From contig MHCJ01000006.1 in NCBI GenBank assembly GCA_001816585.1, forward strand, positions 64,040 through 128,039: a stretch of DNA of 64,000 bases. Direction: 5' to 3'. Below, in pieces: positions 42,650-62,289 of this stretch (position 1 is its first letter; each line of letters begins with the position of its first letter). Made by a program: the position numbers and the translations under genes. The DNA comes from Candidatus Chisholmbacteria bacterium RIFCSPHIGHO2_01_FULL_52_32 (GTDB lineage: Bacteria > Patescibacteriota > Microgenomatia > UBA1400 > Chisholmbacteraceae). The notes under the pieces are model-generated. The model was given only the letters and a program-made list of their open reading frames with translations. It ran no database searches and had not been told where the DNA came from.

Positions 42650-44102
42650 CCAGCCGGTCAGCCAGACCGGTATAACCAGTGGGAGTTAGAGCCAACAATA
42701 CCTTCTTGTCTTGAGTGGCAAGCGGCAGGGTTTTGATAAATGCGGCGATCTCCTGGCGGCTGTGGACAAAGCCGCGGAAAAACAATTTCGTGCGCTCGAA
42801 GGCATCGCCGCGGCCTTTGGCCCGCAAATAATTTTGGATGGCCTCGGAGAGAATTTCGTAGTGGTCGTCGAGCGCTTGTGCCATAAATTCCGGATGGGGA
42901 CGAATTCGGTGCAAACTTTCCAAAACGCTTTGGTAGGAAAGCAGGCTGTAGGCAAAGGCGGTACCGAAAGACCGGCGTATCGTACTGTCGGAAAGGTCCC
43001 GCTGCAGACGGGAGTAGGAGAGTTTCCGGATATACATTTCCAAAAGTCCATTGGCAATCTCAAACCCGCCCTCCGCCCCTTCCAAGTAAATCGGATTAAT
43101 TTTATGCGGGAGAGCAGTTGAGCCCACTTCCGCAGGGATGCGCTTTTGGCTGAGGAATCCCAACAGGGCATAGAGCCACAAATCCTTACACAGCCCTAAA
43201 AGCAGCAGGTTGATTTGTAGCATGGTTTGGAAGATGTCGGTAAGCGAGTCATATGAGGCGATTTGGGTAGAAATCGGCTCTGGGTTTACTTCCAGCTGTT
43301 CCAGGAAGGTTTCGGAGAACCGCAACCAATCTACCTTGGGGAAGACCACGGCGTGGGCATTAAAATTACCGACATTCCCCGAACATTTGCCCGCTGCCCG
43401 AAACTGCGAGAGTTGCCTGATGCGCTTCTCCAGCCGGTAGATATAGACACCCAGCTCTTTTCCGTAAGTCGTGCCGTTGGCCGGCTGTCCGTGGGTATAG
43501 GCAAGCATGGGCAACTGTTTGTATTCGCGCGCCTGCTTTTTTAATTCCGCCAGATTTTCCCACAGTATGGGTAAGATAATGTCCTTGAGCGCGCGATTGA
43601 TGCAGCGGGCATAGGCACAGGAATTGATGTCATCGGACGTCAGTCCGAAATGAACCATGCTCGCGATATCCCGCAGCGTAGTTTTACTAAGGCGCTCCTG
43701 CAGGTAGAGTTCAACCGCTTTAACGTCATGGTTGGTCTGCTGTTCAATCTCCCGAAGCCTCAGATAGTCTTTGGTGGTAAGTAAAAAGAGGGATTTGAGA
43801 TGCGTCTGTTCTTTGGTGGTAACCGGGCGAATCACTCGATAACGCGACAGCCAAAGCAGATACTGGATTTCGACAAATACCCGCTCTCGGTTAATCGCGC
43901 GTTCCGAGAAATAGTCGGAGAGAGTGCTAATCTTAAAATAATTTCGTCCGTCAATCGGGGTGATATGCAGGTCGATGGGGATTGCACCTAGCGTACTCAC
44001 GTAGCCCAGGGTAACACAAGGAATACCTGCAAGTAAAGAGATTCTTCCGCAGTCTCCGACATCAGATGCTCTTGGGGAATACAAACTTACTGGGCTCAAC
44101 AC
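42633..44102 (-). CDS. purB: adenylosuccinate lyase (fumarate lyase family)
   Basis: Signature GSTALPHKINPI; N-terminal PIDGRNY; overlaps purA start. Confidence 0.85.
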   Translation of the reverse strand: MLSPVSLYSPRASDVGDCGRISLLAGIPCVTLGYVSTLGAIPIDLHITPIDGRNYFKISTLSDYFSERAINRERVFVEIQYLLWLSRYRVIRPVTTKEQTHLKSLFLLTTKDYLRLREIEQQTNHDVKAVELYLQERLSKTTLRDIASMVHFGLTSDDINSCAYARCINRALKDIILPILWENLAELKKQAREYKQLPMLAYTHGQPANGTTYGKELGVYIYRLEKRIRQLSQFRAAGKCSGNVGNFNAHAVVFPKVDWLRFSETFLEQLEVNPEPISTQIASYDSLTDIFQTMLQINLLLLGLCKDLWLYALLGFLSQKRIPAEVGSTALPHKINPIYLEGAEGGFEIANGLLEMYIRKLSYSRLQRDLSDSTIRRSFGTAFAYSLLSYQSVLESLHRIRPHPEFMAQALDDHYEILSEAIQNYLRAKGRGDAFERTKLFFRGFVHSRQEIAAFIKTLPLATQDKKVLLALTPTGYTGLADRLVETYA

Positions 44103-44224
44103 CCCGCCACTTACACTGTATCATATCTTCAATCGGGAAACGCTTGCCAAGCTTAAAATCCAGCTCGAAATTGCCAGAAGGTTAACCAACAACCAACCAG
44201 CATATCAGGAGGTTCATATATCCA

Positions 44225-44419
44225 ATGGAAGATTTTGCCAACTACCTGTACCGGAGTAGAACCAGAAAAGGGCGTTATGTAAGCCAACAAACCCTCTCCA
44301 AGCTGTCCGGCTACAGCCAGACTTATATATCTTTGATCGAAACACGGAAGGCGAGACCGTCAAAGAGGTGTATGAGGGTAATTTTAAGCGTTTTAGATGC
44401 TAATCTAAGATTTTCTTGA
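44225..44419 (+). CDS. XRE-family helix-turn-helix protein
   Basis: QQTLSKLSGYSQTYISLIE HTH; sits at GC-content transition. Confidence 0.5.
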   Translation: MEDFANYLYRSRTRKGRYVSQQTLSKLSGYSQTYISLIETRKARPSKRCMRVILSVLDANLRFS

Positions 44420-45085
44420 AACAAACCCGATTATTGCATTATCTATTAGTTTAGGCACCGTTGTATTCCAAAGAACGCCATCAACATCCTTTAAAGTTAG
44501 CTTAAGTTGCTGGGTAATCTTGTAAAGCTCCCTCATTAAAATTGAAAACGATTTGAATTCTTTTATCTCTTCATTATGATAATTGAAGTAACCGTAAAAA
44601 AAGTTCATTGTGTATCGCCTATCCATCGGGGGAAATAGCTTTGGTAACAAAAAATGGAGTGTTTTTGATACTCCAACAATTTTTGACTTTGACTTCATAA
44701 TTTTTAAACCCAAGAACAGTTGTCTTGTTATCTCCAAAACCTGTTCTAGCTCAATCTCGGTCAATCGCTGAAGTTCTTTACTGCTTAATTGAGTAACAAT
44801 TCCACTATTCTTCCGGATGGATTCCGCAAAATCATTAAAGTCAGCCAATCTTGCCCCCCGCATGTTCATATTCCACGAAACCAAAGTAACATAACATAGC
44901 TCTATAAAATCTCTGTCACCAGTTAGCTTTACTGTCTGAAAATCTACTTGCTTTTGACGTTCGAAGATCTTCCGGTAGAGATAGATTGACGGGGTTAAGG
45001 ATCGAAAGTTTTTATTGCATATAGACACATATTTGAAAAATTGTTCTCTTGATTCTGTTAATTTGTCTATATTTTCTGTTTTCAT
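44405..45085 (-). CDS. hypothetical protein (226 aa), last gene of nuclease triad
   Basis: ORF abutting Cas4-like nuclease gene (no gap). Confidence 0.5.
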   Translation of the reverse strand: MKTENIDKLTESREQFFKYVSICNKNFRSLTPSIYLYRKIFERQKQVDFQTVKLTGDRDFIELCYVTLVSWNMNMRGARLADFNDFAESIRKNSGIVTQLSSKELQRLTEIELEQVLEITRQLFLGLKIMKSKSKIVGVSKTLHFLLPKLFPPMDRRYTMNFFYGYFNYHNEEIKEFKSFSILMRELYKITQQLKLTLKDVDGVLWNTTVPKLIDNAIIGFVSRKS

Positions 45086-45754
45086 TTAATCTCCAAACGC
45101 TTTAGAGCCCCAGTTGCAAAACTCACAAGCAAAATCGCTATGGCGCTTGGGTTCTGGGCCTTTTAGACACTCTACGGCATCCTTGAATAACTTTTCTGCT
45201 CTAGTTATATCTGTTTCCAGCTTTTTAGGCTCGACTTCAAAGTCCACTCGGCCGTTTTCTGCTACTTGTCTGGGGAAATAATAGACCAGATAAGCAAAAC
45301 TGGCTGTTTTATAACCGTTTTTCATCAACAAATAGCAATAGATATCCAACTGGTGCTGGTAATAACTGCTGGTATCTTCTTTTAACTCATAACCCCGGGT
45401 TTTGTAATCCAAGGGGATATAAACGCCATCATCAACCAAGCAGTCATCCAAAACACCTTTAAGAACAGCGTCAAGCTCTTTGTCCTCATATGTCAGCCCT
45501 TCCCAGTTACTCTGCCATGATTTTAAGAGTTTCTCATCGTCAAACAGCTTACCAATTACTTTTCCTTCAATTTCTGGCGGTAACTTACCCTGTCTGCGGT
45601 ACTTGTCATAGTATTTTTTGATAACCCCATCCATGCCTCCCGGTAGAGATGGAAAAATTCCTCTTGGCCTGTGAATATTTTTGTTAAACTGCAACCAAAA
45701 GCACCTCGGGCACTCCATGTATAGGCTAATTGTTGAGGGTGAGAGTTTTATCAT
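45086..45754 (-). CDS. Cas4/RecB-like PD-(D/E)xK nuclease with cysteine cluster
   Basis: N-terminal YMECPRCFW, core IPLDYKTRG (D...DxK), QxxxY (QHQLDIY), C-terminal CEFCNW. Confidence 0.7.
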   Translation of the reverse strand: MIKLSPSTISLYMECPRCFWLQFNKNIHRPRGIFPSLPGGMDGVIKKYYDKYRRQGKLPPEIEGKVIGKLFDDEKLLKSWQSNWEGLTYEDKELDAVLKGVLDDCLVDDGVYIPLDYKTRGYELKEDTSSYYQHQLDIYCYLLMKNGYKTASFAYLVYYFPRQVAENGRVDFEVEPKKLETDITRAEKLFKDAVECLKGPEPKRHSDFACEFCNWGSKAFGD

Positions 45755-48237
45755 AAACTAACCCGCTTTCTGATAATTTCTTTAACCACTTCCAAATCCT
45801 CATTATTGATAAGATGAAATCTTACCTGATCGTGACGTTTCTTTGGCATGACTGACTCAGGCTTAGACAATTTATCTTTCAGCAACTCTAGTTCTTCAGG
45901 GTTAGTATATTGAAGCTCGGCAAAAATCCACTGCTCAGCAGAATAATAGTAAAGTACCAGATTTTTGGATATCTTTATCGCTCTTGAGGATCCAGCCCAC
46001 CTCTCAAACGACACATCCCGATCCTTAAAATCTTTTTCCACCCATTCTGGGATTGAAGTAACTGCTTGTTTGACAAACTCGCTTTTGACCCGCTTAATCG
46101 TCTGCTCGTCTGGTTCAATCTTTCTTCCCAAGGCTACTTTGCTTTCTTCCGGCTCTTCTTTATCGATATTTTTAACTACTCTGAGTATTTGCGAAAACCA
46201 CTCAACCGCTGCTTCAGCCTCCTTCTGTAATACAAAATTGATTTCCTTGACATGCTTAACTGCATTTCTGAAGTCCTTTAAAGTGATAAACCTTTTCTCT
46301 GTTTCATAGGTTGATCCGAAGTATTGCTCGAAAAACTGCCAATTCTTTAAGATTGTATTTGAATAATCCATCACATCACACTGGCAGAGTTTCTCATAAG
46401 AGGATAATTGATCCTCTTTGATATATGGATTTTTCCTTACATACTCGGCAATCTTGGTTTTAGCTTTAACTTTAATATCTTGTGGAATAACCTTATCCCA
46501 GTAATCGGGGCCGACTTTATCCCTTAAAACGTTATCGATGAGCAAGCGAAGCCGAAGTTCAATATCATCAAGGGCGCTATTGGCATTAACCCCTAAAATC
46601 TGGATGATTTTTGATCCCGTCAATCTCTCAAATTCACCTTTAATTTTTATTACCCTTTCTTTGATAAATGCCTGGTAGTCATCATTTTTGATAACTTCAG
46701 AATAAGTTATCAAGTGTGATTGTAAAGTATTATCAAAGTCAGAGTTTTCCTTATCAAACTTTGAAAAATAGTCGCTTGGGCTTTTATCTAGAATTTCTTT
46801 GTTAAGCTCTGCCGGGATAAAACAGAAGTTAGCGATAAGATTCTCTCCACTCTGACCGTGTTTTGAAAGATGGTTTTTAGGGAAGATGTGGTGTTTTTCC
46901 GGATGGTTAAACTCTGAACAGAAGTTATAATCCATAGAAATCGGTTCGTTTGTTCTGAAATGTTTCGGTGTTCGAAGCGCTAACATGCAGAAAAAAGCAT
47001 TACGCAGGGCTGATTTGGTACTGATGGTAGTATTAGCGATTTTCTCTTCATCGGCCGTAATCTGGAAATTTATCTTTGGCTCTTTATCTGAAAGCAATTT
47101 GTCAAAAATTTCTCTTCTGTCCTCACCCATTTTACTTTCCATAGCCGCTGTGTACCGTTCGCTTAGGGAGGCCTTCCAAAACCACTCGTGGACCTTCTCG
47201 GTAACCTCTTTGTCCAGTGAGTGTCGGGGTGATTTGTAATATAGATAGGCAAGTAAGGAAATAAATGAGGGGTATGGCACAAAGTCAAAGATTTTTACTC
47301 CTAAACTGCCTGTTAAGTGGTCAATTGCCTGCTCAATTGCTGAAGCGATCCCATCCCAATTGTTTTTAATCTCCTCCTTTCTTAGCTGCAGTTGGTAAAT
47401 CTTGTTGCAATAGCCTTTAAGGATTAAAGAGGCAGTATGAGTGACTACTTCCGGCGGGATCTCACCAAAGTTTTTCTTGCTGATTCTTCCGCTTAATTCC
47501 TCATATTTCTCTTTCAAGTCAAAATCTTCTCCCCAAGTGCTAGCCACGATCAGGTCAAATAGCGACAGCTTCTTACCTCCCTGATTGATCCTTTCAAATA
47601 TCTCACAAGCCTCGTTTAAAGTGGCGTTAGATACGGTAACCACGCTTAGGGGGTAGGTAGTAAACCGTCGATAACAATCGTTGAAGACTTTTCGTCTTTC
47701 CGGTGGCAACTTGTCATAAAGAGATAAGTGATCTTCTCCGATTATTTTATACAAAGGCAAGTATCGGTCGCTTTCTTTTTTGACCTCAAAAACAGAGATA
47801 TTTCCGTTTTCATCAGGAGTTTTTTTGTAGTAATCCAGATCTAGACAGATAACCGAACAGTCAATTGCTTTAACCTTGTTGTTGTGTTTAATCTCAACCT
47901 TCAATCCCTTCCAGGCAGCATATAACGAACAAATCCTTTGCTGGCCGTCAAGGATAAACTTCAACTTCTCATCCGACCTTGGCTTTTTAGGCATAATGCC
48001 AAGCTCCGGCAAGTCCCGATAGAAAAGATTGTGCTTACCAGTTGTTTCCCAGAGGAAAAAACTTCCAATAGGATACTCTTTAAAGATACTGTCAAGCAAA
48101 GCCACAATCTTACTTCGTTCCCAGACAAAATCTCTTTGAAATCTGGGCACCCGTAAAGAGCCTTCGGTTAAAGCGTCAAGCAAAGTGATGATCTGTTTGC
48201 TTCCTTCTGATTCTATTCTTGGTGCTGATATTGACAT
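45751..48237 (-). CDS. GmrSD-family type IV restriction-like nuclease (DUF262 ParB-like + DUF1524 His-Me finger) with C-terminal HEPN-like extension
   Basis: DUF262 motifs VPRFQRDFVW, ILDGQQRICSLY; DUF1524-like NHPEKHHIFPKNHL...ENLIANFCFIPAELN; C-terminal FRNAVKH (Rx4H). Confidence 0.8.
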   Translation of the reverse strand: MSISAPRIESEGSKQIITLLDALTEGSLRVPRFQRDFVWERSKIVALLDSIFKEYPIGSFFLWETTGKHNLFYRDLPELGIMPKKPRSDEKLKFILDGQQRICSLYAAWKGLKVEIKHNNKVKAIDCSVICLDLDYYKKTPDENGNISVFEVKKESDRYLPLYKIIGEDHLSLYDKLPPERRKVFNDCYRRFTTYPLSVVTVSNATLNEACEIFERINQGGKKLSLFDLIVASTWGEDFDLKEKYEELSGRISKKNFGEIPPEVVTHTASLILKGYCNKIYQLQLRKEEIKNNWDGIASAIEQAIDHLTGSLGVKIFDFVPYPSFISLLAYLYYKSPRHSLDKEVTEKVHEWFWKASLSERYTAAMESKMGEDRREIFDKLLSDKEPKINFQITADEEKIANTTISTKSALRNAFFCMLALRTPKHFRTNEPISMDYNFCSEFNHPEKHHIFPKNHLSKHGQSGENLIANFCFIPAELNKEILDKSPSDYFSKFDKENSDFDNTLQSHLITYSEVIKNDDYQAFIKERVIKIKGEFERLTGSKIIQILGVNANSALDDIELRLRLLIDNVLRDKVGPDYWDKVIPQDIKVKAKTKIAEYVRKNPYIKEDQLSSYEKLCQCDVMDYSNTILKNWQFFEQYFGSTYETEKRFITLKDFRNAVKHVKEINFVLQKEAEAAVEWFSQILRVVKNIDKEEPEESKVALGRKIEPDEQTIKRVKSEFVKQAVTSIPEWVEKDFKDRDVSFERWAGSSRAIKISKNLVLYYYSAEQWIFAELQYTNPEELELLKDKLSKPESVMPKKRHDQVRFHLINNEDLEVVKEIIRKRVSL

Positions 48238-48254
48238 ATTTTTATACTCAATAT

Positions 48255-51200
48255 TTAATTTTCTCCACTCCAGTCTTTACAAAGTAAATTTGCCTGTTCC
48301 AATACGGTTTGTGTTGCGCTTTCCTGTTTGTCCGGTGGGTAGTTGTACTTTCGTAAAAGCTTCTTAACATACACTCTTAATTTTGCTTGAACGTTTTCTT
48401 TGATTGTCCAGTCAATGGTGGTGTTTTTACGAAGCATGGACACAAGCTCTCTGGCAATCTGCATGAGTATTTTATCTCCCAACTCCCGGATGGCGCTTTC
48501 ATTGACGCATAGCGCATCATAAAAGGCCACTTCCTCGGGGCTAAGCCCAATCTCTCCACCTCGTTCTTTTTCTTTCTTAATTTTCTTGGCCAGTTCAACC
48601 AGTTCAGCGATCACTTGGGCGGCTTCGATAGTGCGATTCTGGTATTTCTTAATTGTCTCCTCAAGCATCTGAGCAAAAGAGCGTGATTTTACCAGATTAG
48701 ACCTCATCATAGTGACAATTTCATCATTTAGCAGGCGCTTAAGCATCTCAAAGGCCAAATTCTTATGAGGCAAATCTTTAACTTCAGCCAAGAATTCATC
48801 AGAAAGAATGGAAATATCCGGTGTTTTAATTCCTGTTGCCGAGTAGATATCAATAACCTTATCCGAAACAATCGCTCCCGAAACTATCTGTTTGATTGCC
48901 TCCTGATAATCTTCGTCAGTTGGTCCTCCGCCACCGCCCCCGCCGCCAGATTTTCTAATACCAGCTTTTACCGATTGGAAAAAGGCAACTTCGTCTCTGA
49001 TTTTCAGAGCCTCCTCATCGGGTACGGATAGGGAAAAGGCAAATGAAAGCTCAGTTACAGCCTGGATGTACCGCTTCTGCCCGTCTTCCAAGCCGAGAAT
49101 ATAATCCATAGCCGAAGCAATAAGTCTAGTACGCTCAGAAGCCGAGCCTTTTAATTTATCTTTATACTCAAACCCGTGGTACATCTGACAAACAACCTCG
49201 TACTTTTCAAGCATGATCCTGACTGCTTCTTCTTGGGGTATGGCTACTTTCTTGCGGTCATTGTCAGTGTAGTAAGCCAAAGCGTCCTTCAGCTCCGGTG
49301 CAATACCCAGATAGTCAACGATCAGTCCTCCTTGTTTGTCTTTAAAGACTCTGTTGACTCGAGCCACAGTCTGCATCAGTCCATGACCTTTCATTGGTTT
49401 GTCAATATACATGGTGTGCAGACACGGCACATCAAAGCCTGTCAACCACATATCCCGAACAATGACTAATTTTAATTTATCGTTGGGGTCTTTCATTCGA
49501 TTGGCTATATCGTGCCTTACCTGTTTGGTGCGGATATGTTTTTGCCAGTCCAAAGGATCAGCGGCTGACCCGGTCATCACTACTTTCAAAAATCCATCCC
49601 GATCATCATCAGAAGCCCAGTTTGGTCGAAGCTTAACCAGTTCGTTGTATAGCTCAACCGCAATCCTCCGGCTCATTGCCACCACCATACCTTTGCCGTC
49701 AACTGCTGAAAGTCTAGTTTCAAAATGTTCAACTAAATCCTTGGCGATAAGAGAAATACGCTTTGGAGCTCCAACCAAAGCTTCAAGCCGGGCCCATTTG
49801 CTCTTAAGCTTTTCTTTCTTTTCCACTTCTTCTCCTTCTGTTAATTCTTCAAACTCCGGGTCAATTTTAGGCCGTTCTTCTTCCTTTAAAGAAATCTTAG
49901 CCAGCCTTGCCTCATAGTAAATCGGTACTGTTGCTTTATCCTCAACTGCCTGGGAAACATCATAAACGTCAACATATTCTCCAAAAACTGCTCTGGTGTT
50001 TTTGTCTGTCAGCTCAATTGGAGTGCCGGTAAAGCCGATAAACGAAGCGTTGGGAAGTGCATCTCTCATGTGGCGGGCAAAACCATCGATAAAGTCATAC
50101 TGGCTACGGTGAGCCTCATCGGCAATAACCACAATATTTGTCCGCTCCGAGAGCATCTGGTAGTCATGTTTGCCGTTTTCGGGGAAAAACTTTTGGATAG
50201 TGGTAAAAACCACGCCACCAGAAGCAACTTTTAAGTATTCTTTTAATTGTTCCCGGCTTTCTGCCTGTTTGGGAGTTTGCCGAAGTAAACTTGAACAGCG
50301 GGAAAAGGTTCCAAACAACTGATCGTCCAAGTCATTTCTGTCTGTCAAAACCACAATCGTCGGGTTATCAAGTGCCTGGATGATTTTTCCGGCATAAAAG
50401 ACCATAGTTAAACTCTTGCCTGATCCTTGCGTATGCCAAACCACGCCACAGCGCCGGTCTCCTTCTTTTCCGGTTGCTTCCATTGTCTTAGAAACAGCCT
50501 TATTGGTAGCATGATACTGATGGTAAGCAGCTACTTTTTTGCTGATTTTCTCACCATCAGTCTCAAAGACCACAAAGTTATTGATAATATCCAAAAGTCT
50601 TTGTTTTTCAAAAATCCCTTTTAACAATACTTCCAGCTGAGGCACCGAGTTTGGCGCTAAATCCTGACCCTCAATAGTCCGCCACCTGGTAAACCACTCC
50701 ATGTTTGAAGAAATCGTTCCGGCTCTGGCTTCCAAACCATCGCTGATGATTGCCAGTTCGTTATAGGCAAAAAGAGAAGGAATTTCGCTTTTGTAGGTTT
50801 GAATCTGGTTAAAAGCGCCTTTAACAGTAGCTCCGGTATCTGCCGGGTTTTTCAGCTCGATAACCGCAACAGGAAGACCATTGATAAAGATAACGACATC
50901 CGGTCGTCTTTGGGCTCTGTTTTCGATAACCGTGTATTGGTTGACTGCCAGAAAATCGTTTTTATCAGGCTTGCTCAAATCCAAAAGTTTTACTTTATCT
51001 CCGGCAATTGAGCCATCTGTCCGTTGATATTCAACATCCACACCGTCACGAAGCATGGCATGAAAGGCTTTGTTGTTTACTGCCAGTTGAGGGCTTAAAG
51101 TAGATACTCGAAGCACTTTGCGTAAAGCATCTTCTCGGGCTCCCTCCGGTATATCCGGATTCAAACGGTTAATCGCATTTTGTAATCGTTCTACTAAAAC

Positions 51201-51341
51201 TACATCAGAGTAGCTTTTACGTTCCGGCCTTTCACCATCTGGCGGTGGAGCAATCTCTGGTCCTCCAACCACGCTATACCCAAGCTCTGAAAGCCACTCC
51301 AGCGTTGCCTGTTCTAAATCTGATTCTGTATATTTAGACAT
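48255..51341 (-). CDS. hsdR: type I restriction enzyme R subunit HsdR
   Basis: HsdR N-terminal domain, SF2 helicase motifs [26 protein letters not shown]; 1028 aa. Confidence 0.9.
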
Positions 51342-51343
51342 AT

Positions 51344-53776
51344 TTAGTAAACTTTTTCAGTTATTTTTATAAATTCGGCAATGTGATTATCTAGTTCAGA
51401 GATTGCCGATGGAATTTCTTTGTCTGCATGTAACAAATTTGAGTAACTGCAATACTTATAAATATTTCTTATTCTTTCCAAATCGGTATCGTTCAGCTTG
51501 ATAAGTTTTCCTTTACCAGATATTAAATTGTCGGTAACCTGAGTAAAGTTATCCTCTTTGTTCCATAATAGTAGTTCGTTTTTGATAAATCTTTCTATGG
51601 CTAACCGCAAAAGCTGACCATATTTCAAAGCTATTGCCTCTAGGCATAATGTGCCCTTTTTTGCCTGCTCTGTCATCTCCTGATAACACTGTTTTACATC
51701 CGCAAGTAAGTCAAATCCAGGATCAGAGTAGATAAAGCTTCCACCGAATTCTTCTCTATTTCTAGCTATACCAAACGTGATCGGGTTGGGATTCTCACAC
51801 TTTGATAAATACTTATAAAAAAGCGGGTGATGGGTTAATACGACAATCTGCCCAAAGGTTTTAGTTTTTTCATGGATGAGATCCGATAGTATCTTCAGAT
51901 TGGGAGCGTCAAGACTAGTTATTGGATCGTCTAGAATCAAGATAACGTCTTTTTTGTCACCAATATTCTCGTTCAACGCAAAGAAAAACGCCAAGGAAAC
52001 CATCTGTCTTTCGCCTTCTGATAAACCTTGCTTAAAAGCTCTTTCCTTTCCGCTTTTATCGTATATTCTGAAAGAAAAGGGGTACTCCTTCGTCTTCGGT
52101 GAAAGCTTAATATGCTTAAGTGTAAAATTGAGGTTGAAACGACCAATGATTTTTATCATTAAGTCAATGAGAGATTGAGGTATTTTCTCTGATAAATACT
52201 TTTCTAAATTGTCTTCTAACAAATCTACTTCCTGATCTAATTTTTCTTTTTCAGACTTTACCTTCTCGTGCTTTTTAATTTGCTCAACTCTTTCTCCTTC
52301 AACAAATGCGTAGATTCCTTCAAGTTCAGCAATCTTGTTGTTTACTTTTTGATGCTCTAGGTCAGTGTTCCTTTTTACCGAATATTTCTGTTTAAACTGG
52401 TTGATTTTTTGGTTCTTACTATCAATAAATTTGTTAAATTCAGTTATCAACTTGTCGAGTTTAACAAAAAAAGCATTTAATTCATCATAAGCGGAATCGG
52501 TACAATATTTTGGTTTTTCTAAAGTTTTCAGTTGCTGTAAAGCCCGCTGAAGTATTGATATTGCCTGAGAGGCTTTACTGCATATTTCAAATTTCTTATT
52601 GTAAGAAATCTTCTCGTCAATATTGTAAAGATCTTTAATTTCAAATTCCTGATTTACTTTCTCAAAAGAAGAAAAAGCCTCGAGTACATCTTCTGGTAAA
52701 TTAGTTATGAAGGTAAGATATTCCGTAATTTCTTGTTCAAGATTTTGAATATCGCTTAGGTATTTTTGCTTCTCGTTTTCATATGTTTTGTCAAATACCT
52801 GTCGATAATATTTGATGACAGCTGTTGCACCAGATAACGGTTGCATACACAGTGGACAGTTTTTGTTCTTTGTATCTGTAATCCTTTTATAATTTTCATC
52901 TTTTTCTAGGAATGACTTATGTTGCTCATAATGTGCTTTTATTAAAGAATCCGCACCATCTCCAGCAGTTTTTTTAATATCCCTTTCGAAAAGTTCAATA
53001 TAGACCTTCTTTGAAGAAATCTGGGGTCGGTCTGACAATTGATTTATCGTTTGAATCCCTGCTATTTGTGCTGACTTGTTTAGTAGTTTTGTGAGACGAT
53101 CCTTGTCTTTTTTTTGATCTGAAATTTCACTTAAAGTCCTTTTGGCAAGTGCTCCTTTTTGATTTTTATTTAAACTTTTATATTTGTTAAACAAGACTAT
53201 CTCTTCCGGGGAGACTGTTAGGTGCAATATGTCCTTGTTGTTGCTTTCAAACTGACTTAAGGCCATCTTTTTTTCCGAAAGATCCATCTTTTGTTTATTT
53301 GCCTGAGCGTCTAAGCTGATAATGAGATTGCCAGCGTTTTGGGTGTGATATCCCTGGATATTGCTAATCGTCCCGTGGGAGTGGATATTTTTATCTATAA
53401 AGTCAACATCAAAAAATAGGATATGTTTTTGTTCTTTTGGTGTATCATCCCATTTTCCTTGCTCGAAGCGGTATGTCTTCGTTGATATATTCCTTTTTAT
53501 ATAAGTTTTTCCATTTGGAGCTGTGTTTTTACTTAACTCAACGGTCTCAAGCTCAACTTCTGACAATACGGGTTTATCGCCTTCAAATCTTTGAAAACCA
53601 GTTAAGTCTTTCAGTATTTCACAGACTGAAGATTTCCCAGACCTGTTTTCTCCAAAGAAAACTGTAAAAGGAGAAAATGAACACTCTCTTCCAGTTTTAT
53701 CCTTACATAAACAATCCCACTGAAAATCTTGAAACGGTTTGTAATTTTTTATAGTTTTTATCTTCTTAATTTTCAT
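51344..53776 (-). CDS. RloC-like Rad50/SMC-type ABC ATPase with coiled-coil CPxC zinc hook and C-terminal putative anticodon-nuclease-like region
   Basis: Walker [10 protein letters not shown], signature LSEGERQ, Walker [15 protein letters not shown]-loop VVLTHH; ~450-aa coiled-coil insert with CPLC; embedded in hsd operon. Confidence 0.6.
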
Positions 53777-55052
53777 AATCCCTTACTCTTAATTTTCCAC
53801 TCATTAACCTTGGTAAAAGTGAATCTCTTATAGATGTTAGACGCTCAATCTCATCATGTGTTTGTCGATATTTAGAAAACAATAAATCTATAAGGCCACT
53901 AAATTCGGCAAGTATTTCTTTTTTCGGAAGAACTACAGGAATTGAATTTAAATTGTTTTGATTAAGTTTTGGTTGAACAGCTCCTGTGATATAAGGTGCA
54001 ATATTTGTAACTTCAAGAAAAAGCTTTAAAACTTCAGTTGAAAATCCATTTTTACCCTTTAGTACATGGGCATGATTGTTGACCCAAAATTTTCCCCATA
54101 CATACTGTGTGACTGCAGTTTCTTTGTTGGTGATTACCGTTCCGTCTTCTCCAACCAATAAATATATTCCGTCAAAAATGAAGTCATTAACATGATCCAT
54201 TACGCCAGTTGCGCCGTAGTACCTAAAGTCTCCTTTGCGTTTCTCTCTTTCTCTATTCGATAGAGGTATTCTTTTTGAGTCAAAATTTTCTACAACATTT
54301 CCAAAGTGTCCAGCTTCCCACCCCTCCGGTATCTCTCCTAATTCCGAATTCACCATTTTGCCACCGCTTGATTTGTAAGGCCTACCATTTTCATCGGGGA
54401 ATTCAAAATCTACAAACCATTGCTTAAAGAGTGCCTTGCCGATTTCCTCAAGCGTATTGTTCATTTTCCGGTTGAGCTCGATCTTGTCATCAAGAGAAGA
54501 GAGGATCAAAATGATTATCTGTTGCTCGTGAATACTAGGTAATGCAAGCTTTATCAATTCAATAATTTGCCGGTTAGCGATATTGACTTGAACACTTCCT
54601 GTTGAGCGAGATGTTATTGAAGTAAATCCATATCTTGAGGTAAAAAAATACTTTAAATAGTCTGGTAATATCTTTTCAGTGTCAGGCCTTAAAGCTAAGA
54701 GCGCCTGGCTGATGATTCCTTTTGGGTCTTCGTCCGTAATGATTGATACCTTACCAAGCGTACCCGAACAACTAATGATCAGGTCATTTACTTTTACTTG
54801 AAATCTTTTTAGTTCTTCAAATTTTTCTTCATCTATATAGTATCTAAAGTCTCGAACACCATATATTGCGTGTTGTTGCTCATAGACAGGTATTCCTTCC
54901 GATTTTAGCTCAGGTCTTCTTAGCGCTGAACCGAAAGGCCCTCTGATATATCCTTTTTCTGACAATACATCCCTTAATTCAACTAGCTCCCAAGTTTGTG
55001 GAATTTCGCCGATTTCGGTTTGTTTGTAATTTGTTTTAGATGTCATATCCAA
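53766..55052 (-). CDS. hsdS: type I restriction-modification specificity subunit HsdS (two TRDs)
   Basis: Conserved HsdS N-terminal and central repeat regions; overlaps hsdM by 17 nt. Confidence 0.85.
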
Positions 55053-56562
55053 CTTTTTTTAAATTCTCCTTTATTTTCTGTTCCAACTCTTTGGATTGTT
55101 TGAATTGCACTGAAAGTTCTTTTGTTAATCTTGCCATTTTTTCTTCGAATACTTCGTCATCTTCCATTTCAAAATCTGTACCCACATAGCGGCCTGGAGT
55201 TAAAACAAATCCATTCTTTTCTACTTCTTCAATCGTGGCAACCTTGCAAAAGCCCTTTTTATCCTCATACTTGCTGTTCTTGTTTCTCCAGTTGTGGTAG
55301 GTTTGGGAAATCGTGGCTATATCTTCATCGGTCAATTCCCGGTGTCTGCGGTCGATCATCTTACCCATCTTGCGTGCGTCGATAAATAGGATTTCATTGT
55401 GCCTGTCCCGAAACTTGTTGTTGTATCTGTCTCTTGAGACAAACCAAAGACATGCTGGAATTTGCGTGGTATAAAAAAGCTTATCCGGCATGGCGATAAT
55501 ACAATCCACCAAGCCGTTCTTAACCAGATTTTTTCTAATTTCTCCCTCTCCTGAAGTGTTTGACGAGAGCGACCCGTTAGCCATGACAAATCCGGCAATC
55601 CCTATTGGTGACAAATGATGAATAAAGTGCTGGATCCAAGCATAGTTGGCGTTTCCTGTCGGAGGTGTACCGTATTTCCAACGCATATCCTCACGTAATC
55701 TTTCACCGCCCCAGTCGCTGATGTTAAACGGAGGATTGGCTAGGATAAAATCGCTTTTTAAGTCTTTGTGCTGATCGTTGTGGAAGCTATCACCAAGCAA
55801 GATATGCTTACTCTCAATTCCTCTTATGGCAAGGTTCATCTTACAAAGCCTCCAAGTGGTAGCGTTTGACTCCTGACCAAAGATAGCGACATCGTCAAGC
55901 CTGCCGCCGTGAGTCTCGATAAACTTCTCGCTCTGAACAAACATGCCTCCTGATCCGCAACACGGGTCAAAAACACGGCCTTTGTAAGGCTCGATCATGT
56001 AGACCAAAAGTCTTACTACCGAAGCCGGGGTAAAAAACTCTCCGCCGCCCTTGCCTTCAGCGCTGGCAAATCGGCCGATAAAGTACTCATAGACTCGTCC
56101 AAGTACATCTTTTGACCGGCTTTCTTTATCTCCCAGTCCAATTGTACCGATAAGATCGATCAATTCTCCTAAGCGCTGTTTGTCTAAAGTTGGCCGGGCA
56201 TAATCTTTGGGAAGCACGCCTTTAAGCGAGAGGTTTTCTTTTTCAATTGCCACCATGGCATCGTCAACCAGTTTGCCTATTTCTGCTTTCTTGGCATTTT
56301 GTAAAAGGGAATTCCAGCGGGCTTCTTGGGGTACCCAGAAGACGTTTTCTGCTAGGTATTCGTCTTTGTCTTCGGGATCTGATAATTTGTCAGCTTTTAA
56401 TTTTTCGTGGAGTTCTTCGAAGGAGTCGGAGATATATTTAAGAAAGATAAGGCCAAGTACAACATGTTTGTACTCCGAGGGGTCCATGTTGTTTCGCATT
56501 TTGTCGGACGCCGCCCAGAGTTTTTCCTCAAACCCCAGATTGGCCGAGGTTGTTTTTTTCAT
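55036..56562 (-). CDS. hsdM: type I restriction-modification N6-adenine DNA methyltransferase HsdM
   Basis: HsdM N-terminal domain, FxGxG SAM motif, catalytic NPPF ([12 protein letters not shown]). Confidence 0.9.
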
Positions 56563-56592
56563 AATTTTAAATTCTCCTATTTTTAAAATTCT

Positions 56593-56796
56593 CTACTTTT
56601 TCTTTTTTTGAGATTTGCTTTTTATATATGCTTCAATATCTTCTTTTTTATACCTGCGGTCACCAATACCACGCCTGGTGCCGATCCTAACAGCTTTTAA
56701 TATGTTGTCATTGTCCCATCTGCGGAGCGTCTGTTCGTTCACCTTCAAAATTTGGGCTGCTTGCTTGAGAGTTAGTAATTCGTCTATGCCTGTCAT
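56593..56796 (-). CDS. excisionase/MerR-like HTH DNA-binding protein
   Basis: LTLKQAAQILKVNEQTLRRW HTH; first gene of the minus-strand island operon. Confidence 0.6.
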   Translation of the reverse strand: MTGIDELLTLKQAAQILKVNEQTLRRWDNDNILKAVRIGTRRGIGDRRYKKEDIEAYIKSKSQKKKK

Positions 56797-56868
56797 ACAT
56801 TAATTGTCTTTAATTATACATTTATTATTGTAAAAAGGGAAACGAACAAGTAGAATATAAACAGATCA

Positions 56869-56953
56869 GAGCTGCGAAATATGCCTTCGGCGTGGTCTTG
56901 AACCCAAAAAGGGGCGACTCTCGTAGGGTTCAAGGCTTCGCAGCTCTGAATAC
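56869..56953. repeat. 85-nt imperfect palindrome with perfect 12-bp terminal inverted repeats
   Basis: CAGAGCTGCGAA ... TTCGCAGCTCTG with internal GCCTTGAACCC/GGGTTCAAGGC complementarity; in divergent intergenic region. Confidence 0.55.
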
Positions 56954-57001
56954 TGGGGGTCGTCCCTTTCTGTTTGGAGGATGACCCAGAAAAGATAATA
57001 T

Positions 57002-57850
57002 ATGGGTCATAAAAATATTTTTGCTTCCGATGGTTGCCTAGCCCAACTTGTTTTCTTTGTTTTTGTGTTGATCTGTTTATTTTCCTACCCACCTTACGGA
57101 TTGTTACTGGGTATCGGAATCCTCTTTATAAGATTTCAACTTCATAAAAAGAAAAAGCTTGAGAAACAAAAAATAGAACTCGAACAAGTTCAAAAGGAGA
57201 TGGATGAGGAAGAGAAAATTAACAAAAGATTTGATGAGATGGATAAAGTTATCAACTCCATGATTAAAAAGGGAAAGATAGATAAGAATTTTATTAAAAC
57301 GCAGTTCGCTGATCTGATCCCAGCTGATATATATTCATCAGAGAAGGAAAAGGATAATCTTATTGATGAACACATAAAAAGACGGTTAAAAGGATTGGCT
57401 TATGAAGAGCGAGAATTGCGAAAACATGAGGCAGATACTTTTATGGCAAGATCGTATCTTCAAAGAAAGAAAATACAAACTCTAAAAAAGAATTTAAGAC
57501 AAGTTGATGATTTATTTGATTTAACACCTGTCGAGTTCGAGAAATGGGTAAAACGCAATATCTTTGAAAAAAAAGACTGGGAGGTAACGGAAACAAAAGC
57601 CACCGGTGATGGCGGTATAGACCTAATCCTAAATCGACAAGATGAACACTCCATAGCTCAATGTAAAAGGTTCAAAAAAACAGTTGGTGAACCGCTTATA
57701 AGGGATTTCTATGGTGTAATGATAAGTGAAGGCGTCAGTAAAGGTTATTTTGTAACTACCGGCCTATTTTCCTTATCTGCTCTTAAATTTGCAGAAGGCA
57801 AACCAATTGAAATGATTGACAGGCGAGTTTTAGCTCAAAAATACCTTTAA
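57002..57850 (+). CDS. membrane-anchored restriction endonuclease (Mrr-cat domain, PD-(D/E)xK) with coiled-coil linker
   Basis: N-terminal TM helices, Lys/Glu coiled coil, C-terminal GDGGIDL...IAQCKRF...GYFVTTGLFS Mrr-cat motifs. Confidence 0.7.
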   Translation: MGHKNIFASDGCLAQLVFFVFVLICLFSYPPYGLLLGIGILFIRFQLHKKKKLEKQKIELEQVQKEMDEEEKINKRFDEMDKVINSMIKKGKIDKNFIKTQFADLIPADIYSSEKEKDNLIDEHIKRRLKGLAYEERELRKHEADTFMARSYLQRKKIQTLKKNLRQVDDLFDLTPVEFEKWVKRNIFEKKDWEVTETKATGDGGIDLILNRQDEHSIAQCKRFKKTVGEPLIRDFYGVMISEGVSKGYFVTTGLFSLSALKFAEGKPIEMIDRRVLAQKYL

Positions 57851-58120
57851 TTTCTTTCAATACCCACCTTATGATTTGGTCGATATAACGGGCTAATTCC
57901 AATTTTTCCTATTGACAAAAGATTTACTCAACTGTTATCATTTATACAGCTTCTCTCAAGAAGCATAGGTTTAGTAAAGAGTACCTCTTCGTAGGAGCAA
58001 AAGGTCGAGTAAGGCCGGAGACTCCTTTTTTATTGCTTCCAAAAGTCCTTAGTTTAAGTTGTTGGTGATGGAGACATGATCTCCTGAGTGTCAGTTTTAA
58101 TAAATTGCTCAGGAGGTTTT

Positions 58121-58756
58121 ATGTCAAAACAATATAAAAACAAAAAATATTTAAAGCAAAAATATGAAGAGTTAGGTTCAACAAGAAAAGTCGGTAAATT
58201 CTTTGGAGTTTCCAATGGCACGATATGTTATTGGATGTCAAAGTACCGGATACCAAGAATCCCCAGATTAGATTTACAGGATAACAACTCAGGAAAAGGC
58301 AGACGAGGAGAGATTTATATTGTCGATCACCCTTATTTTCGAGGAAAAATAATTGATCTTGGACTAATTGACGATAAGTCAAAACGTGATCTTATCTGGG
58401 ACTCAAACTCCATTGACGTTAAAACTAGCCATTACAGGAGGCCAATTTTTAGAACAAAAGTAAAAAGGCATCGCTGTATTTTTTATATTTGCCTTTATTA
58501 CGATTATAAAGTCAGTGAATTCGTTCCGGTTGAGGTTTGGATTACTCCTGCACGTATTGCTTCCCATGAGAACATCGCTCCTGGTTTTAAGAAAAAGTCA
58601 AAATTTGACAAATATCGTCTGTCAAATCTCAGGGGAAAAGCTTTTAGCACTGATGAAGAAAAGAAATATAACCAGGAGTTCGAAAAACGTTACCAAAAAC
58701 TAATTGATAAAAAGAAAGCTCAAAGAACTAGAAAAAGCAAGGAGGTATCTCAATGA
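58121..58756 (+). CDS. HTH-domain protein of unknown function, first gene of Topo-VI-like operon
   Basis: AGGAGG RBS; N-terminal HTH (LGSTRKVGKFFGVSNGTICYWM); 4-nt overlap with downstream GHKL gene. Confidence 0.45.
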   Translation: MSKQYKNKKYLKQKYEELGSTRKVGKFFGVSNGTICYWMSKYRIPRIPRLDLQDNNSGKGRRGEIYIVDHPYFRGKIIDLGLIDDKSKRDLIWDSNSIDVKTSHYRRPIFRTKVKRHRCIFYICLYYDYKVSEFVPVEVWITPARIASHENIAPGFKKKSKFDKYRLSNLRGKAFSTDEEKKYNQEFEKRYQKLIDKKKAQRTRKSKEVSQ

Positions 58757-60060
58757 AAAAACCACAATTCGTCCGTAAGCTTTTTACCACCAGTCGACTT
58801 CTGGAGTTTTTTACCGAAAAAGAACTATCGATGCAAATAGGTCACAGTAAAGAATGGTGGCCAATTGCTCTTTTAAAAGAACTTATTGATAACTCACTTG
58901 ACGCTGCAGAAAATATAAACAAACCCCCGGAAATCCAGATAGTAATTGCTGAAAACTATTTTTCTGTCGAAGACAACGGTCCTGGGATCCCTGATAAAGT
59001 GATTAATCGTTCATTGAACTACACCGTAAGAGTGTCGGATAAAAGCTATTATGTGAGTCCCACCCGAGGACAACTGGGAAATGCGCTTAAATGTGTATAT
59101 GCCGCCCCTTTTGTCGCTAATGGTGAAATAGGCAAGATTGAAATAGTGAACGGTAAAAAAACGTATATGATCGAGGTTGTTTTGGATCGAATAGACCAGA
59201 AACCAAAAATAAAGTTAAACAAACTCGATGAAGGCAATTGTAAAAAAGTGACAGTTTTTTACACAGATTCAGCAGGCTTACTTTTAACACCGAAAGTTTC
59301 AAATATTTACAAAACCCCAATGGACGCAGAAACCCTCGTAAAAAGATATGCCATATTTAATCCACATGCGACATTCAATTTAAACGGTAAAACGTATGAA
59401 CCTTCCAGCACAGTTTGGAAAAAGTGGTTACCAACAGAGCCAACTTCACCACATTGGTATACACCAGAGCAACTCAAAACGCTGATTGCTGCATATTTGA
59501 GCATGGATCGAGACAGCGAAAAAACCGTAAGAGAATTCATTGCAGAGTTTAGGGGTCTTAGTGGTACGACTAAACAAAAAGAGGCCACAGATGATGCAGG
59601 ACTCTCAGGTAAGAGGTTGTGTGACTTGATCGTCAACAACGATATACCTTTAGCACCAATTGAGAAACTTCTGATGTCGCTTAAAAAACATAGCAGACAA
59701 GTAAAAGCCACTTCTTTAGGTTCAATCGGTGAAGAACATCTTAAAACTAGAATGATGAATGACTATCACATAGCCCCTAATAGCTTTAAGTATAAAAAGA
59801 TAGCCAAGATCGATGAGGTAACTAATTTACCACATGTCATAGAAATTGGTTTTGCTATCTATGACAAAGACCATGAGCAAAATTCCCGACAAGTAATATC
59901 TGGTCTAAATTGGTCACCAACATTTGATTTTTTGAGTGAGGCAAAAACAATGTTGTTTGAGAACCACATAGAACCACAAGATCCAGTTTGTGTGGTTTGT
60001 CATATCGCCCGGCCAAAATTTGAATATACCGACAAAGGAAAGGAGCAAGTATGTCTTTAA
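58753..60060 (+). CDS. Top6B-like GHKL (Bergerat-fold) ATPase
   Basis: N-box LKELIDNSLDAAE, G1 box VEDNGPGI, G2 box SPTRGQLGNAL. Confidence 0.7.
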   Translation: MKKPQFVRKLFTTSRLLEFFTEKELSMQIGHSKEWWPIALLKELIDNSLDAAENINKPPEIQIVIAENYFSVEDNGPGIPDKVINRSLNYTVRVSDKSYYVSPTRGQLGNALKCVYAAPFVANGEIGKIEIVNGKKTYMIEVVLDRIDQKPKIKLNKLDEGNCKKVTVFYTDSAGLLLTPKVSNIYKTPMDAETLVKRYAIFNPHATFNLNGKTYEPSSTVWKKWLPTEPTSPHWYTPEQLKTLIAAYLSMDRDSEKTVREFIAEFRGLSGTTKQKEATDDAGLSGKRLCDLIVNNDIPLAPIEKLLMSLKKHSRQVKATSLGSIGEEHLKTRMMNDYHIAPNSFKYKKIAKIDEVTNLPHVIEIGFAIYDKDHEQNSRQVISGLNWSPTFDFLSEAKTMLFENHIEPQDPVCVVCHIARPKFEYTDKGKEQVCL

Positions 60061-61277
60061 CCAATGATTTACAATCGGCTTTTAAATCGACTTCTAGAGA
60101 TTGGAAACAGAAGAAAAAGGGGCTTAGACGGCAAGAAAGCATGAGTTCATGGGGTTTATCAAGTTTACGCTCATACCGTCCACCACGGCAAACAGTAAGA
60201 GACGCTGCTTTTAAAGTTATGAAAGATGCAATAAACAAAGCAAGCGAAAATGGACGTTACTTTGCTAATGCTCGCCAGATCATGTATGCTGCGAGGCCTT
60301 TAGTACTTGAGATAACGAGGGGCGAAATATGGAAAGATTCAGCATACTTTACTCAAACTTTACTTAAAGATTATATCGAACAATATGGCGGTGGAGAAAA
60401 GATTGTTTGGGATGCTCGGGGACATTTAATCGAACCACACACAAAAAAGGTCATACCACTAGGAGGTATTGATGTATTAAAGTACATCAACGACTGGAAC
60501 AGTAAATTTGATATATACGAAGATAGTATTGTACCGAAAGGTATTAAAACTGTTGGACCTAAACTCAGATACGGTGGCGTGCTCTTTATCGAAAAAGAGG
60601 GATTTTCAGAAATTCTTGATGACGCCAGAATTGCGGAAAGATTTGATATCGCCATCATGTCAACCAAAGGGCTCCCTGTTGGTGCTGCATGTAGATTAGT
60701 TTCAGAGCTGGCCGCAGGATCTAAAATTCTTGTCCTTCACGATTTTGATTTGGCTGGATTCAAGATTCTCCAAACTCTAAAGTGTGGTACAAGACTAGCA
60801 CCTAGCACGGAAATTACAGATATTGGCCTACGAATAGACGATGTTTTAAAACTCCAATCTGAGGTTGTTGATTATAAACAATGTATTGATCCAAAAATTT
60901 ATTTACGAAATTGCGGTGCAACCAAAGAAGAATGCGATTTCCTGGTTGAAAAACAAGTTTTTCAGAAAAAATGGATCGGAAAACGAGTAGAGCTGAACGC
61001 CATGACTTCAAAACAACTAATTGACTGGCTTGAACAAAAATTACTCGACCATGGTATCAGTAAGGTAATCCCCGACAAAGCAACACTATCCAAAGCCTAT
61101 CAAAGAGCTAGTTATTGCCTTACGCTTCAAGAGGAAATTGAACTAATAAAAGAAGAATTTGATATCGAAGCTGTCAAAATTCCAAAAGATCTATCCAAAC
61201 AAGTGAAAAAAAGAATAATAAATAGTCAACTCTCTTGGGATAAAGCTGTCTGGAATATAGTTTTTGGAGAAAAATGA
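60051..61277 (+). CDS. Spo11/Top6A-like protein (5Y-CAP catalytic Tyr + Toprim)
   Basis: Catalytic Tyr motif ARQIMYAAR, Toprim Glu VLFIEKEGF, DxD motif VLHDFDLAGF; 10-nt overlap with GHKL gene. Confidence 0.7.
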   Translation: MSLTNDLQSAFKSTSRDWKQKKKGLRRQESMSSWGLSSLRSYRPPRQTVRDAAFKVMKDAINKASENGRYFANARQIMYAARPLVLEITRGEIWKDSAYFTQTLLKDYIEQYGGGEKIVWDARGHLIEPHTKKVIPLGGIDVLKYINDWNSKFDIYEDSIVPKGIKTVGPKLRYGGVLFIEKEGFSEILDDARIAERFDIAIMSTKGLPVGAACRLVSELAAGSKILVLHDFDLAGFKILQTLKCGTRLAPSTEITDIGLRIDDVLKLQSEVVDYKQCIDPKIYLRNCGATKEECDFLVEKQVFQKKWIGKRVELNAMTSKQLIDWLEQKLLDHGISKVIPDKATLSKAYQRASYCLTLQEEIELIKEEFDIEAVKIPKDLSKQVKKRIINSQLSWDKAVWNIVFGEK

Positions 61278-62289
61278 AAGGTTAAGTAGAAGATTTAAGT
61301 TCGACAATAGTCGAGGGGTCGCAAGAGACCAAGGTTAAGGAGTCAAAACTGGCAAAATCGATGATATAAGCCAGTAAGACTTCCATATCGAAGTTAAACG
61401 GTATCGGAGCCCTGCAGTAAAGGCGGTAGCCAAACGCAAACACTGAAAATGAAACAGGGGTCTTATCCAGATGCTCGCTTATAAAGCGTAACCGTCGTAG
61501 AAGTGCGAGTGAGAAGGATTACAGCTCACCTTGCCTCTGAGGCGACAACTTAAAGCAGAAGCGGGATGAATCTACTAGCTAATCTAGTTACAACAAGTAG
61601 CAGGCTGCACACTGATCAATTCAGAATGGCATAAGTAGGAAGTTGCCTTCAAGTCTCGTAAACTAGGATTAAGCTTCATGGAGTGGTAAAGCTACACCTG
61701 GACACGTTAGAACATGAGGAGTTGTTCAAGAACCGTTTATTTCTCTTGCGACTGCAGTTTATAGCTGTAGGGATTAATACTGCTTATAAGACAAACATTA
61801 TCGTAATATTTTTTCAAACACATACTCTTAAAAATTTAAAAAACTAACTTTTCGTACTTATCATAATTGAGCCTAACTGTCGTTTTATTAGATATATTTA
61901 GCCTCATTTAGCCTGAAATCATAAGAGCGGTTATAAATTGTGGTTTCCCGCCTTATGATAGCCACTACCGCCCTTTTGATAATTCATAAAGTCGGTTGTC
62001 AGCAAATATACAACCTTCCTCCTATTTCAGTCGTCTGAACTCCTGTTTTCTTCAATCCAATATTGACAGCCGCCATCTTGCTCTTGACTTTCACTCGGGG
62101 TTCTGTTCCCCTAGGGGGCATGTCTCATTTAGCCATTGCATACGGGATAATTTTTTACTATACTGTTATTAAGTTTTTAATAAGACTCAACTCGGGTCTT
62201 ATAGGTAGAGTAAAAGTTTTAGGTATAGTTTCAGAGGCACATTTCGTGCCAAAGACTATACCTTTTTTTGTTATTTAGGAGGTAAAAGT

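Follow-up and report, generated by a model that had tools for sequence, protein, structure and literature searches.

The model enzymes for the attack on phages shielded by modified bases are GmrSD, BrxU and SspE, and to our knowledge all characterised examples of these are DNA-only enzymes. Here we describe a relative of these enzymes in a 64,000-nt stretch of contig MHCJ01000006.1 of Candidatus Chisholmbacteria bacterium RIFCSPHIGHO2_01_FULL_52_32 (this whole stretch is called the window, and positions are counted within it). The protein is 828 aa long and carries an additional HEPN domain, and its gene is followed by the genes for a 222-aa Cas4-like nuclease and for a 226-aa protein whose family (U226) has no annotation, all three being minus-strand open reading frames (ORFs) at 44405-48237, downstream of hsdR of a type I restriction-modification (R-M) system. 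In the reading that we prefer, with a probability of roughly 0.6, the locus is the distal end of a defence cluster, and the three genes form a mosaic of two overlapping gene pairs behind the type I R-M system and not an obligate three-component machine.

The 828-aa protein resembles BrxU and GmrSD in having an N-terminal DUF262 domain with a DGQQR motif, which is followed by a helical linker and, towards the C-terminus, by a putative His-Me finger motif, and as with BrxU its gene adjoins another defence system. Unlike these enzymes it has ~290 additional residues, which contain a HEPN domain and a YdhG-like domain, and its nuclease motif reads HHIFP instead of DHIYP or EHICP; sequence identity with BrxU is low. 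The fusion of a Swt1-like HEPN domain to 'ParB (DUF262) with HNH' was listed as active in silico by Anantharaman et al. (2013, PMC3710099), and R-M-linked HEPN domains were proposed there as back-up RNases which are released once DNA-level defence fails. When compared by architecture, this 'VNG7073' type and the PADLOC candidates PDC-M55C and PDC-M34B have the same order of DUF262, HNH and active Swt1/Abi2-clade HEPN domains as the 828-aa protein, and the fusion of 2013 is likewise tied to R-M operons, but these entries are computational catalogue items, for which no Cas4-like partner, YdhG-like end domain or 226-aa neighbour is described. A DUF262 NTPase and a HEPN effector are also joined in one defence unit in PD-T4-2, which is, as far as it is described in PMC10952713, an experimentally validated two-gene system of a DUF262 protein and a HEPN protein (Vassallo et al. 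2022). It differs in that these are two separate genes without DUF1524, whereas the 828-aa protein fuses both domains and an HNH nuclease, and the PADLOC model PD-T4-2_A matches the 828-aa protein weakly (4.5e-6, aa 29-60 only).

For the 226-aa protein the closest described proteins are the Dag defence glycosylases, which belong to the HhH (helix-hairpin-helix) superfamily, and Brig1 (bioRxiv 10.1101/2025.10.29.685425; PMC11078745), which are likewise of ~230 aa, invisible to sequence annotation and found in defence loci. The predicted active site of Dag1 consists of K118, D132, D184 and W188, and in mutants K118, D184 and W188 were essential, while one alanine substitution left partial activity (bioRxiv 10.1101/2025.10.29.685425). 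Dag proteins act alone, whereas the 226-aa protein is sometimes paired with a nuclease, and no sequence link between Dag and U226 was found; the likeness is judged by the published residues. In the literature we found no description of PDC-M55, of the pairing of GmrSD with Cas4-like genes, or of an R-M-embedded U226 family. The architecture of the 828-aa protein is already known in silico, and what may be new is the recurrent partnership with Cas4-like genes and the R-M-embedded U226 family.

Gene pairs in related loci

The ORF coordinates and the tight coupling reported in the initial annotation of the locus both agree with our analysis. The 828-aa and 222-aa genes share a 4-nt ATGA stop/start overlap (read as '...gtt agt tTA TGA taa aac'), the stop codon TAA of the 222-aa gene is directly followed by the start codon ATG of the 226-aa gene ('...gat TAA ATG aaa'), and a 17-nt spacer separates the end of hsdR, which lies upstream, from the start of the 828-aa gene. 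Together they form a seven-gene co-directional array in the order hsdM-hsdS-ABC ATPase-hsdR-[828]-[222]-[226], and the gaps of -17, -11, +2 and +17 nt between hsdM and the 828-aa gene mark this as one compact array which includes the 828-, 222- and 226-aa genes. Promoter-like and terminator-like sites inside the array showed no excess over shuffled sequence, and the seven genes are probably co-transcribed. The three ORFs are real genes, as they have database relatives (n=1448 for the 828-aa, n=1972 for the 222-aa and n=342 for the 226-aa protein). Only metagenome contigs with identical gene order yielded exact copies of the 828-aa protein, and these therefore give no comparative information.

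The initial annotation had also proposed that the three genes form a multi-component module, and had named a failure to co-occur in other genomes as the outcome that would speak against this; in the gene-neighbourhood comparison this was the outcome. Gene-pair counts rest on ~110 related loci in all, including a sample of 80 metagenomic loci with relatives of the 828-aa protein (GmrSD-HEPN) and three more close homologues (L119, L120 and L121). A homologue of the 226-aa protein was present in 0/80 of the metagenomic GmrSD-HEPN loci and in 0/3 of the close homologues, none of 21 genome loci and four additional contexts of U226 had a GmrSD gene, and the three genes were found together in none of the ~110 related loci, but only in copies of the same genome.

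What does recur are the gene pairs. A Cas4-like gene immediately adjoins GmrSD-HEPN in 8/80 loci (five upstream, three downstream), in 5/39 of the loci whose flanks are 800 bp or longer on each side, and in two of the three close homologues (L119 and L121, not L120); the gene order in L119 is hsdS-Shedu-hsdR-GmrSD/HEPN-PDDEXK, with a 4-nt overlap in the pair. Cas4-like genes are the largest cluster among the neighbours of GmrSD-HEPN and make up 8/134 of the adjacent genes versus 0/384 of the non-adjacent genes (Fisher p = 1.7e-5). The partners belong to two subfamilies which are ~30% identical to each other, and they are found in either gene order, often with overlapping stop and start codons; this low identity and the two gene orders point to repeated recruitment and not to inherited synteny. 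The second pair is found in L122, where the nearest homologue of the 226-aa protein (73% identity) is preceded by a Cas4-like gene with 87% identity to that of the window, with the same TAAATG junction and in a neighbourhood without a GmrSD gene. In L033 a Cas4-like/U226 pair is present in reversed order, and its Cas4-like gene is ~80% identical to those beside GmrSD-HEPN in L036 and L065. Since both pairs recur while the triad does not, the Cas4-like gene is the shared element, and the region can be read as a GmrSD-HEPN enzyme, for which a Cas4-like partner is facultative, and a Cas4-like/226 pair which travels on its own, with the 222-aa nuclease as a facultative accessory 'hub'.

There are several points which weigh against this reading. 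About 87% of the GmrSD-HEPN loci are without a Cas4-like neighbour, and the Fisher p value overstates the evidence because metagenome loci are not phylogenetically independent. In L040 (6346-7000) the Cas4-like gene upstream of the GmrSD-HEPN homologue has frameshifts and an internal deletion which removes the catalytic D...DxK, so that the partnership is dispensable there, and four close Cas4-like homologues stand alone in housekeeping-like contexts (uvrC/uvrA, glmS and HD genes). For the 828-aa protein itself, the match of Pfam HEPN_Swt1 to residues 541-693 (E = 8e-5, 23.3 bits) is below the cut-off of 27.5, and Pfam DUF1524 matches neither the whole protein nor the sub-sequence, even at E = 10. 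The L040 gene reads into the GmrSD start, and this apparent Cas4::GmrSD fusion was rejected as Rosetta-stone evidence, being a pseudogene or an assembly error.

The disrupted L040 gene and the mostly stand-alone Cas4-like homologues in non-defence contexts would also fit three independent defence genes which are merely stacked in the island or operon, with the Cas4-like gene having no functional tie to its neighbours; defence islands do pack unrelated systems, and the neighbours of both flanking families are heterogeneous. We consider this unlikely, as the enrichment of Cas4-like genes is found exactly at the adjacent position, divergent Cas4-like subfamilies were recruited in both orientations, the Cas4-like/226 junction is identical in another genomic context at 87% and 73% identity of the two proteins, and one U226 member is fused to DUF4268. 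It is very unlikely, in our opinion, that the window contains two systems, namely a stand-alone GmrSD-HEPN enzyme and a glycosylase/Cas4-like module in which the 226-aa protein would remove a modified base and the nuclease would cut or degrade the DNA at the abasic site, with the Cas4-like gene of the window belonging to the second system only. The pairs in L122 and L033 agree with such a division, as do the DUF2779 gene beside U226 in L014, the U226-DUF4268 fusion, and the resemblance of K141-x13-D155...D200...W206 in U226 to the Dag1 residues, but a PDDEXK_1 Cas4-like neighbour is present in only 3/~28 U226 loci (L014 has the DUF2779 gene instead), and the recurrence of Cas4-like genes beside GmrSD-HEPN without U226 would be left unexplained. 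Finally, an obligate machine for modified-DNA sensing or abortive infection, for which the 828-, 222- and 226-aa proteins would all be required, is most improbable, as the tight coupling on a shared strand and the recurrence of each pairwise adjacency are outweighed by the absence of 226-aa homologues from all 83 GmrSD-HEPN loci and of GmrSD from the ~28 U226 loci, and by the fact that most members of the GmrSD-HEPN, Cas4-like and U226 families are solitary.

Table 1. Features of the defence locus, with positions counted within the window.
Feature	Residues (aa)	Position (nt)	Strand	Basis or remark
64-aa XRE-type helix-turn-helix (HTH) gene		44225-44419	+	Gene call; Pfam HTH_31 2e-6
226-aa gene (U226)		44405-45085	-	ORF; unannotated family, all-α, weakly like helix-hairpin-helix (HhH) DNA glycosylases
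222-aa gene		45086-45754	-	ORF; Cas4-like PD-(D/E)xK nuclease with CxxC...CxxC cysteines
828-aa gene		45751-48237	-	ORF; predicted type IV restriction enzyme (BrxU/GmrSD-like) with fused HEPN and C-terminal α/β domains
C-terminal α/β domain of 828-aa protein	~705-828	45754-46125	-	YdhG/frataxin(CyaY)/YjbR/MotA-CTD-like fold
Swt1/AbiF-type HEPN domain of 828-aa protein	~545-693	46159-46605	-	HEPN_Swt1, PDC-M34B, motif and model
Rx4H motif R657-N-A-V-K-H662	657-662	46252-46269	-	Within HEPN domain
Putative His-Me/HNH (DUF1524-like) nuclease region of 828-aa protein	~440-540	46618-46920	-	Family alignment and HEC-05 coverage
DUF262/ParB-like NTPase domain of 828-aa protein	19-232	47542-48183	-	Pfam GmrSD_N E = 3e-30
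DGQQR motif	97-101	47935-47949	-	Inside DUF262 domain, invariant
Type I R-M locus		48255-56562	-	Upstream; co-directional with 828-, 222- and 226-aa genes
hsdR		48255-51341	-	Type I R-M
810-aa AAA_13/ABC ATPase		51344-53776	-	Embedded between hsdS and hsdR
hsdS		53766-55052	-	Type I R-M
hsdM		55036-56562	-	Type I R-M

Domain composition of the three proteins

The initial annotation described the 828-aa protein as a GmrSD-like DUF262-DUF1524 protein with a HEPN-like extension of ~350 aa. The DUF262 half of this description is borne out, with 106 bits for Pfam GmrSD_N versus a cut-off of 33.2, and with the motif L96-D-G-Q-Q-R101, in which D97, G98, Q99, Q100 and R101 are invariant in an alignment of 28 family members. 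The assignment of DUF1524 on Pfam grounds was dropped, and the nuclease half is based on the PADLOC matches and on an invariant HH-IFP...N...N motif only. The PADLOC models in question are PDC-M55C (4e-47, aa 18-533) and HEC-05, which matches full-length (2e-42, aa 12-540) and which is BrxU according to the paper defining it (bioRxiv 10.1101/2024.01.29.577857). BrxU is also the sole solved structure reached by the family profile (7P9K, E = 3e-22), with the His-Me region aligning weakly to BrxU residues 501-577. In this region E447-x-H449-H450-IFP...N470...N479 is invariant in the family alignment, as is E481, and as judged from the alignment the pattern of E447, HHIFP, N470 and N479 is the signature expected of a His-Me finger. 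From its sequence we predict that the 828-aa protein acts as a modification-dependent (type IV) restriction enzyme of the BrxU/GmrSD type.

The extension past the BrxU-like core is shorter than was first annotated (~290 aa, residues 541-828) and consists of two domains, HEPN and a YdhG/frataxin-like α/β domain, separated by a disordered linker. The HEPN assignment with its FRNAVKH motif (aa 656-662) held: residues 541-693 match PDC-M34B at 3e-11, the homologue P0227 has a precomputed PF18731 match, the protein shows the four-helix HEPN fold, and R657, N658 and H662 (RNxxxH) are invariant in 28 diverse family members. The AlphaFold2 model of residues 541-828 has a mean predicted local distance difference test (pLDDT) score of 88. 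While the core of the family is constant, the α/β end domain is a variable module: the DUF262-HNH-HEPN core (aa 1-690) is covered in the best 120 of >1,400 relatives, whereas forms of ~667 aa have no C-terminal module and others carry DUF5655 or DUF4357 in its place. HEPN is lacking in a sister group (520-550 aa), and the domain therefore looks like an accretion onto a BrxU-like enzyme. The HEPN-bearing form is not exceptional: by predicted domain composition HEPN belongs to the core which a very large family has in common, and the fusion was already catalogued in 2013 (PMC3710099).

The identification of the 222-aa protein as a Cas4/RecB-like nuclease with CxxC...CxxC cysteines proved correct. 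It is matched by Pfam PDDEXK_1 (1e-10) and PADLOC Cas4 (1e-11), its nearest solved relatives are the Cas4 structures 4R5Q (E = 2e-5) and 4IC1, and D103, D116-Y117-K118, Q135 and Y139 are invariant in the family, leaving the PD-(D/E)xK/RecB motifs and QxxxY intact; C210 and C213 are invariant and C15 and C18 nearly so. It shares with Cas4 the D...DxK and QxxxY core and four conserved cysteines, which are arranged 2+2 (CxxC...CxxC) in the 222-aa protein versus 1+3 in Cas4. It also differs in that the 222-aa family is mostly stand-alone. The TIGR00372 cas4 equivalog gives 35.6 bits, with a cut-off of 65, and no CRISPR repeat array was found in the window; a bona fide CRISPR Cas4 was rejected on these two grounds. 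The contexts of the Cas4-like homologues are non-CRISPR, and the neighbours in the window are R-M genes. The family contains at least 1,972 clusters at ~55-60% identity, spread over candidate phyla, and the phage family phrog_31195, which has no known function, matches the 222-aa protein at 1e-43.

The 226-aa protein, which the initial annotation had left unrecognised, also had no match in Pfam, NCBIfam, PADLOC, PHROGs, a PDB sequence profile search, the plasmid collection or IMG/VR. A word-indexed search gave 342 relatives, and there are 1,433 cluster representatives at 50% identity from both bacteria and archaea; among the strong matches listed from a profile search of 1.84 billion representatives there was no bridge to a known family. 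The AlphaFold2 model is all-helical with a pLDDT of 92.7, and its best structural neighbours are HhH glycosylases, with weak resemblance: a Foldseek search against the PDB gave nothing significant, with EndoIII and AGOG within the top five. At the profile level there was no link to HhH-GPD, as 0/23 U226 members had any Pfam match at E <= 10 and the PDB profile search was empty, and hhalign of U226 against E. coli EndoIII gave a probability of 0.04. Among the invariant residues of U226 are K141 and D155, both within 'VGVSKTLHFLLPxLxxPxD', as well as D200 and W206; the Lys-Asp spacing is 14 residues in both U226 (K141/D155) and Dag1 (K118/D132). This residue pattern is suggestive only, and the 226-aa protein may be a Dag-like HhH base-excision enzyme, a prediction which is tentative; the portion of the Dag preprint supplement that was searched contained no U226 accession.

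In its genomic contexts U226 is found between hsdR and hsdM (hsdR-U226-hsdM-hsdS, L017) and inside a type III R-M system (Mod-U226-Res, L028), and adjoins Mrr (L012), a DUF2779 gene (L014) or a type ISP enzyme (L033). U226 is an independent, uncharacterised family which is usually embedded in R-M loci. Fusions to DUF4268, DUF7669 or zinc ribbons are found among the relatives P0501, P0395, P0424, P0437 and P0376. DUF4268 is a member of the PD-(D/E)xK clan, and on this basis its fusion to U226 would be the counterpart, within one protein, of the pairing of U226 genes with those of Cas4-like nucleases.

In L122 (2514-7564) the Cas4-like/226 pair follows same-strand genes for proteins of 103, 267, 235 (HEPN_AbiU2), 432 and 180 aa, and this array adjoins an MvaI/BcnI-type R-M system and a LexA-like repressor. 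Neither Pfam nor PADLOC matched the 432-aa and 180-aa proteins, which might be additional partners.

Proposed mechanism and significance

With two overlapping gene pairs behind a type I R-M system, the latter would restrict unmodified foreign DNA, while nucleoside triphosphate (NTP) binding and hydrolysis by the DUF262 NTPase (DGQQR) would, by analogy with GmrSD and BrxU, license the His-Me finger to cleave modified-base phage DNA. The HEPN domain with its intact RNxxxH would provide a second, RNA-cutting effector as a back-up or abortive-infection arm, and the YdhG/frataxin-like end domain might serve as a sensor or bind nucleic acids. The Cas4-like nuclease would most likely enlarge or process DNA nicks or ends made by its partner, and the 226-aa protein may excise modified bases. 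A more far-reaching version, which we regard as distinctly unlikely, has the Cas4-like nuclease as the shared processing partner of two modified-DNA sensors and U226 as a new and widespread R-M-embedded branch of Dag-like glycosylases which, in contrast to the known Dag proteins, could work together with a dedicated PD-(D/E)xK nuclease. Base excision (226-aa protein), strand cleavage (HNH), processing of ends or abasic sites (Cas4-like) and RNA cleavage (HEPN) would then cooperate, behind the type I R-M system, against hypermodified phages.

The interest of the locus lies in a large branch which has a HEPN domain, predicted to be an active RNase, permanently fused to the core known from GmrSD, BrxU and SspE, and which has repeatedly recruited Cas4-like nucleases. 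If this is true, nature would here have linked DNA restriction directly to an RNA-level or abortive response, and the many 'orphan Cas4-like' genes of uncultivated bacteria would gain a defined role. As U226 is found within R-M operons of types I and III, it can be put forward by 'guilt-by-embedding' as a candidate new defence gene, and might be a base-excision enzyme. Should neither of these points be borne out, the locus would remain a clear case of a defence island with layered architecture.

Island setting and neighbouring elements

The array lies on an island (window ~44100-64000) with a GC content of 0.33-0.43, versus 0.49-0.55 in the remaining window, and the nearest relatives of the island genes are in Patescibacteria-like metagenome bins. 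The low GC content and these relatives suggest a horizontally acquired defence island, inserted beside purB-purA-guaB; no tRNA gene was found in the window. The XRE-type HTH gene forms the edge of the low-GC island, is convergent with the 226-aa gene and overlaps its 3' end, and is adjoined by purB.

The 810-aa ATPase between hsdS and hsdR matches PADLOC PDC-S06 (E = 4e-33), with weak LmuB and AriA matches. The same slot is occupied by PrrC in the EcoprrI locus. As the closest related locus (L119) has Shedu SduA at this position, the slot behaves as a swappable site for an 'embedded defence gene'. On the other side of the R-M system, just upstream of hsdM, a 67-aa HTH_17/MerR-like gene (56593-56796, minus strand) adjoins a gene for a 282-aa protein (57002-57850, plus strand) which has an Mrr_cat nuclease domain (PADLOC mREase_IV / PDC-S02) and, at its N-terminus, a membrane-like segment, and these two genes add another type IV-like element to the island. 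Beyond these, three overlapping genes at 58088-61277 (plus strand) encode a 222-aa HTH_50 protein, a 435-aa GHKL-type ATPase (HATPase_c) and a 408-aa Topo VI-A/Spo11-like Toprim protein which is also DUF2399-like. This trio had no PADLOC match and lies on the same low-GC island; it could represent a module for defence or DNA manipulation that is not yet described.

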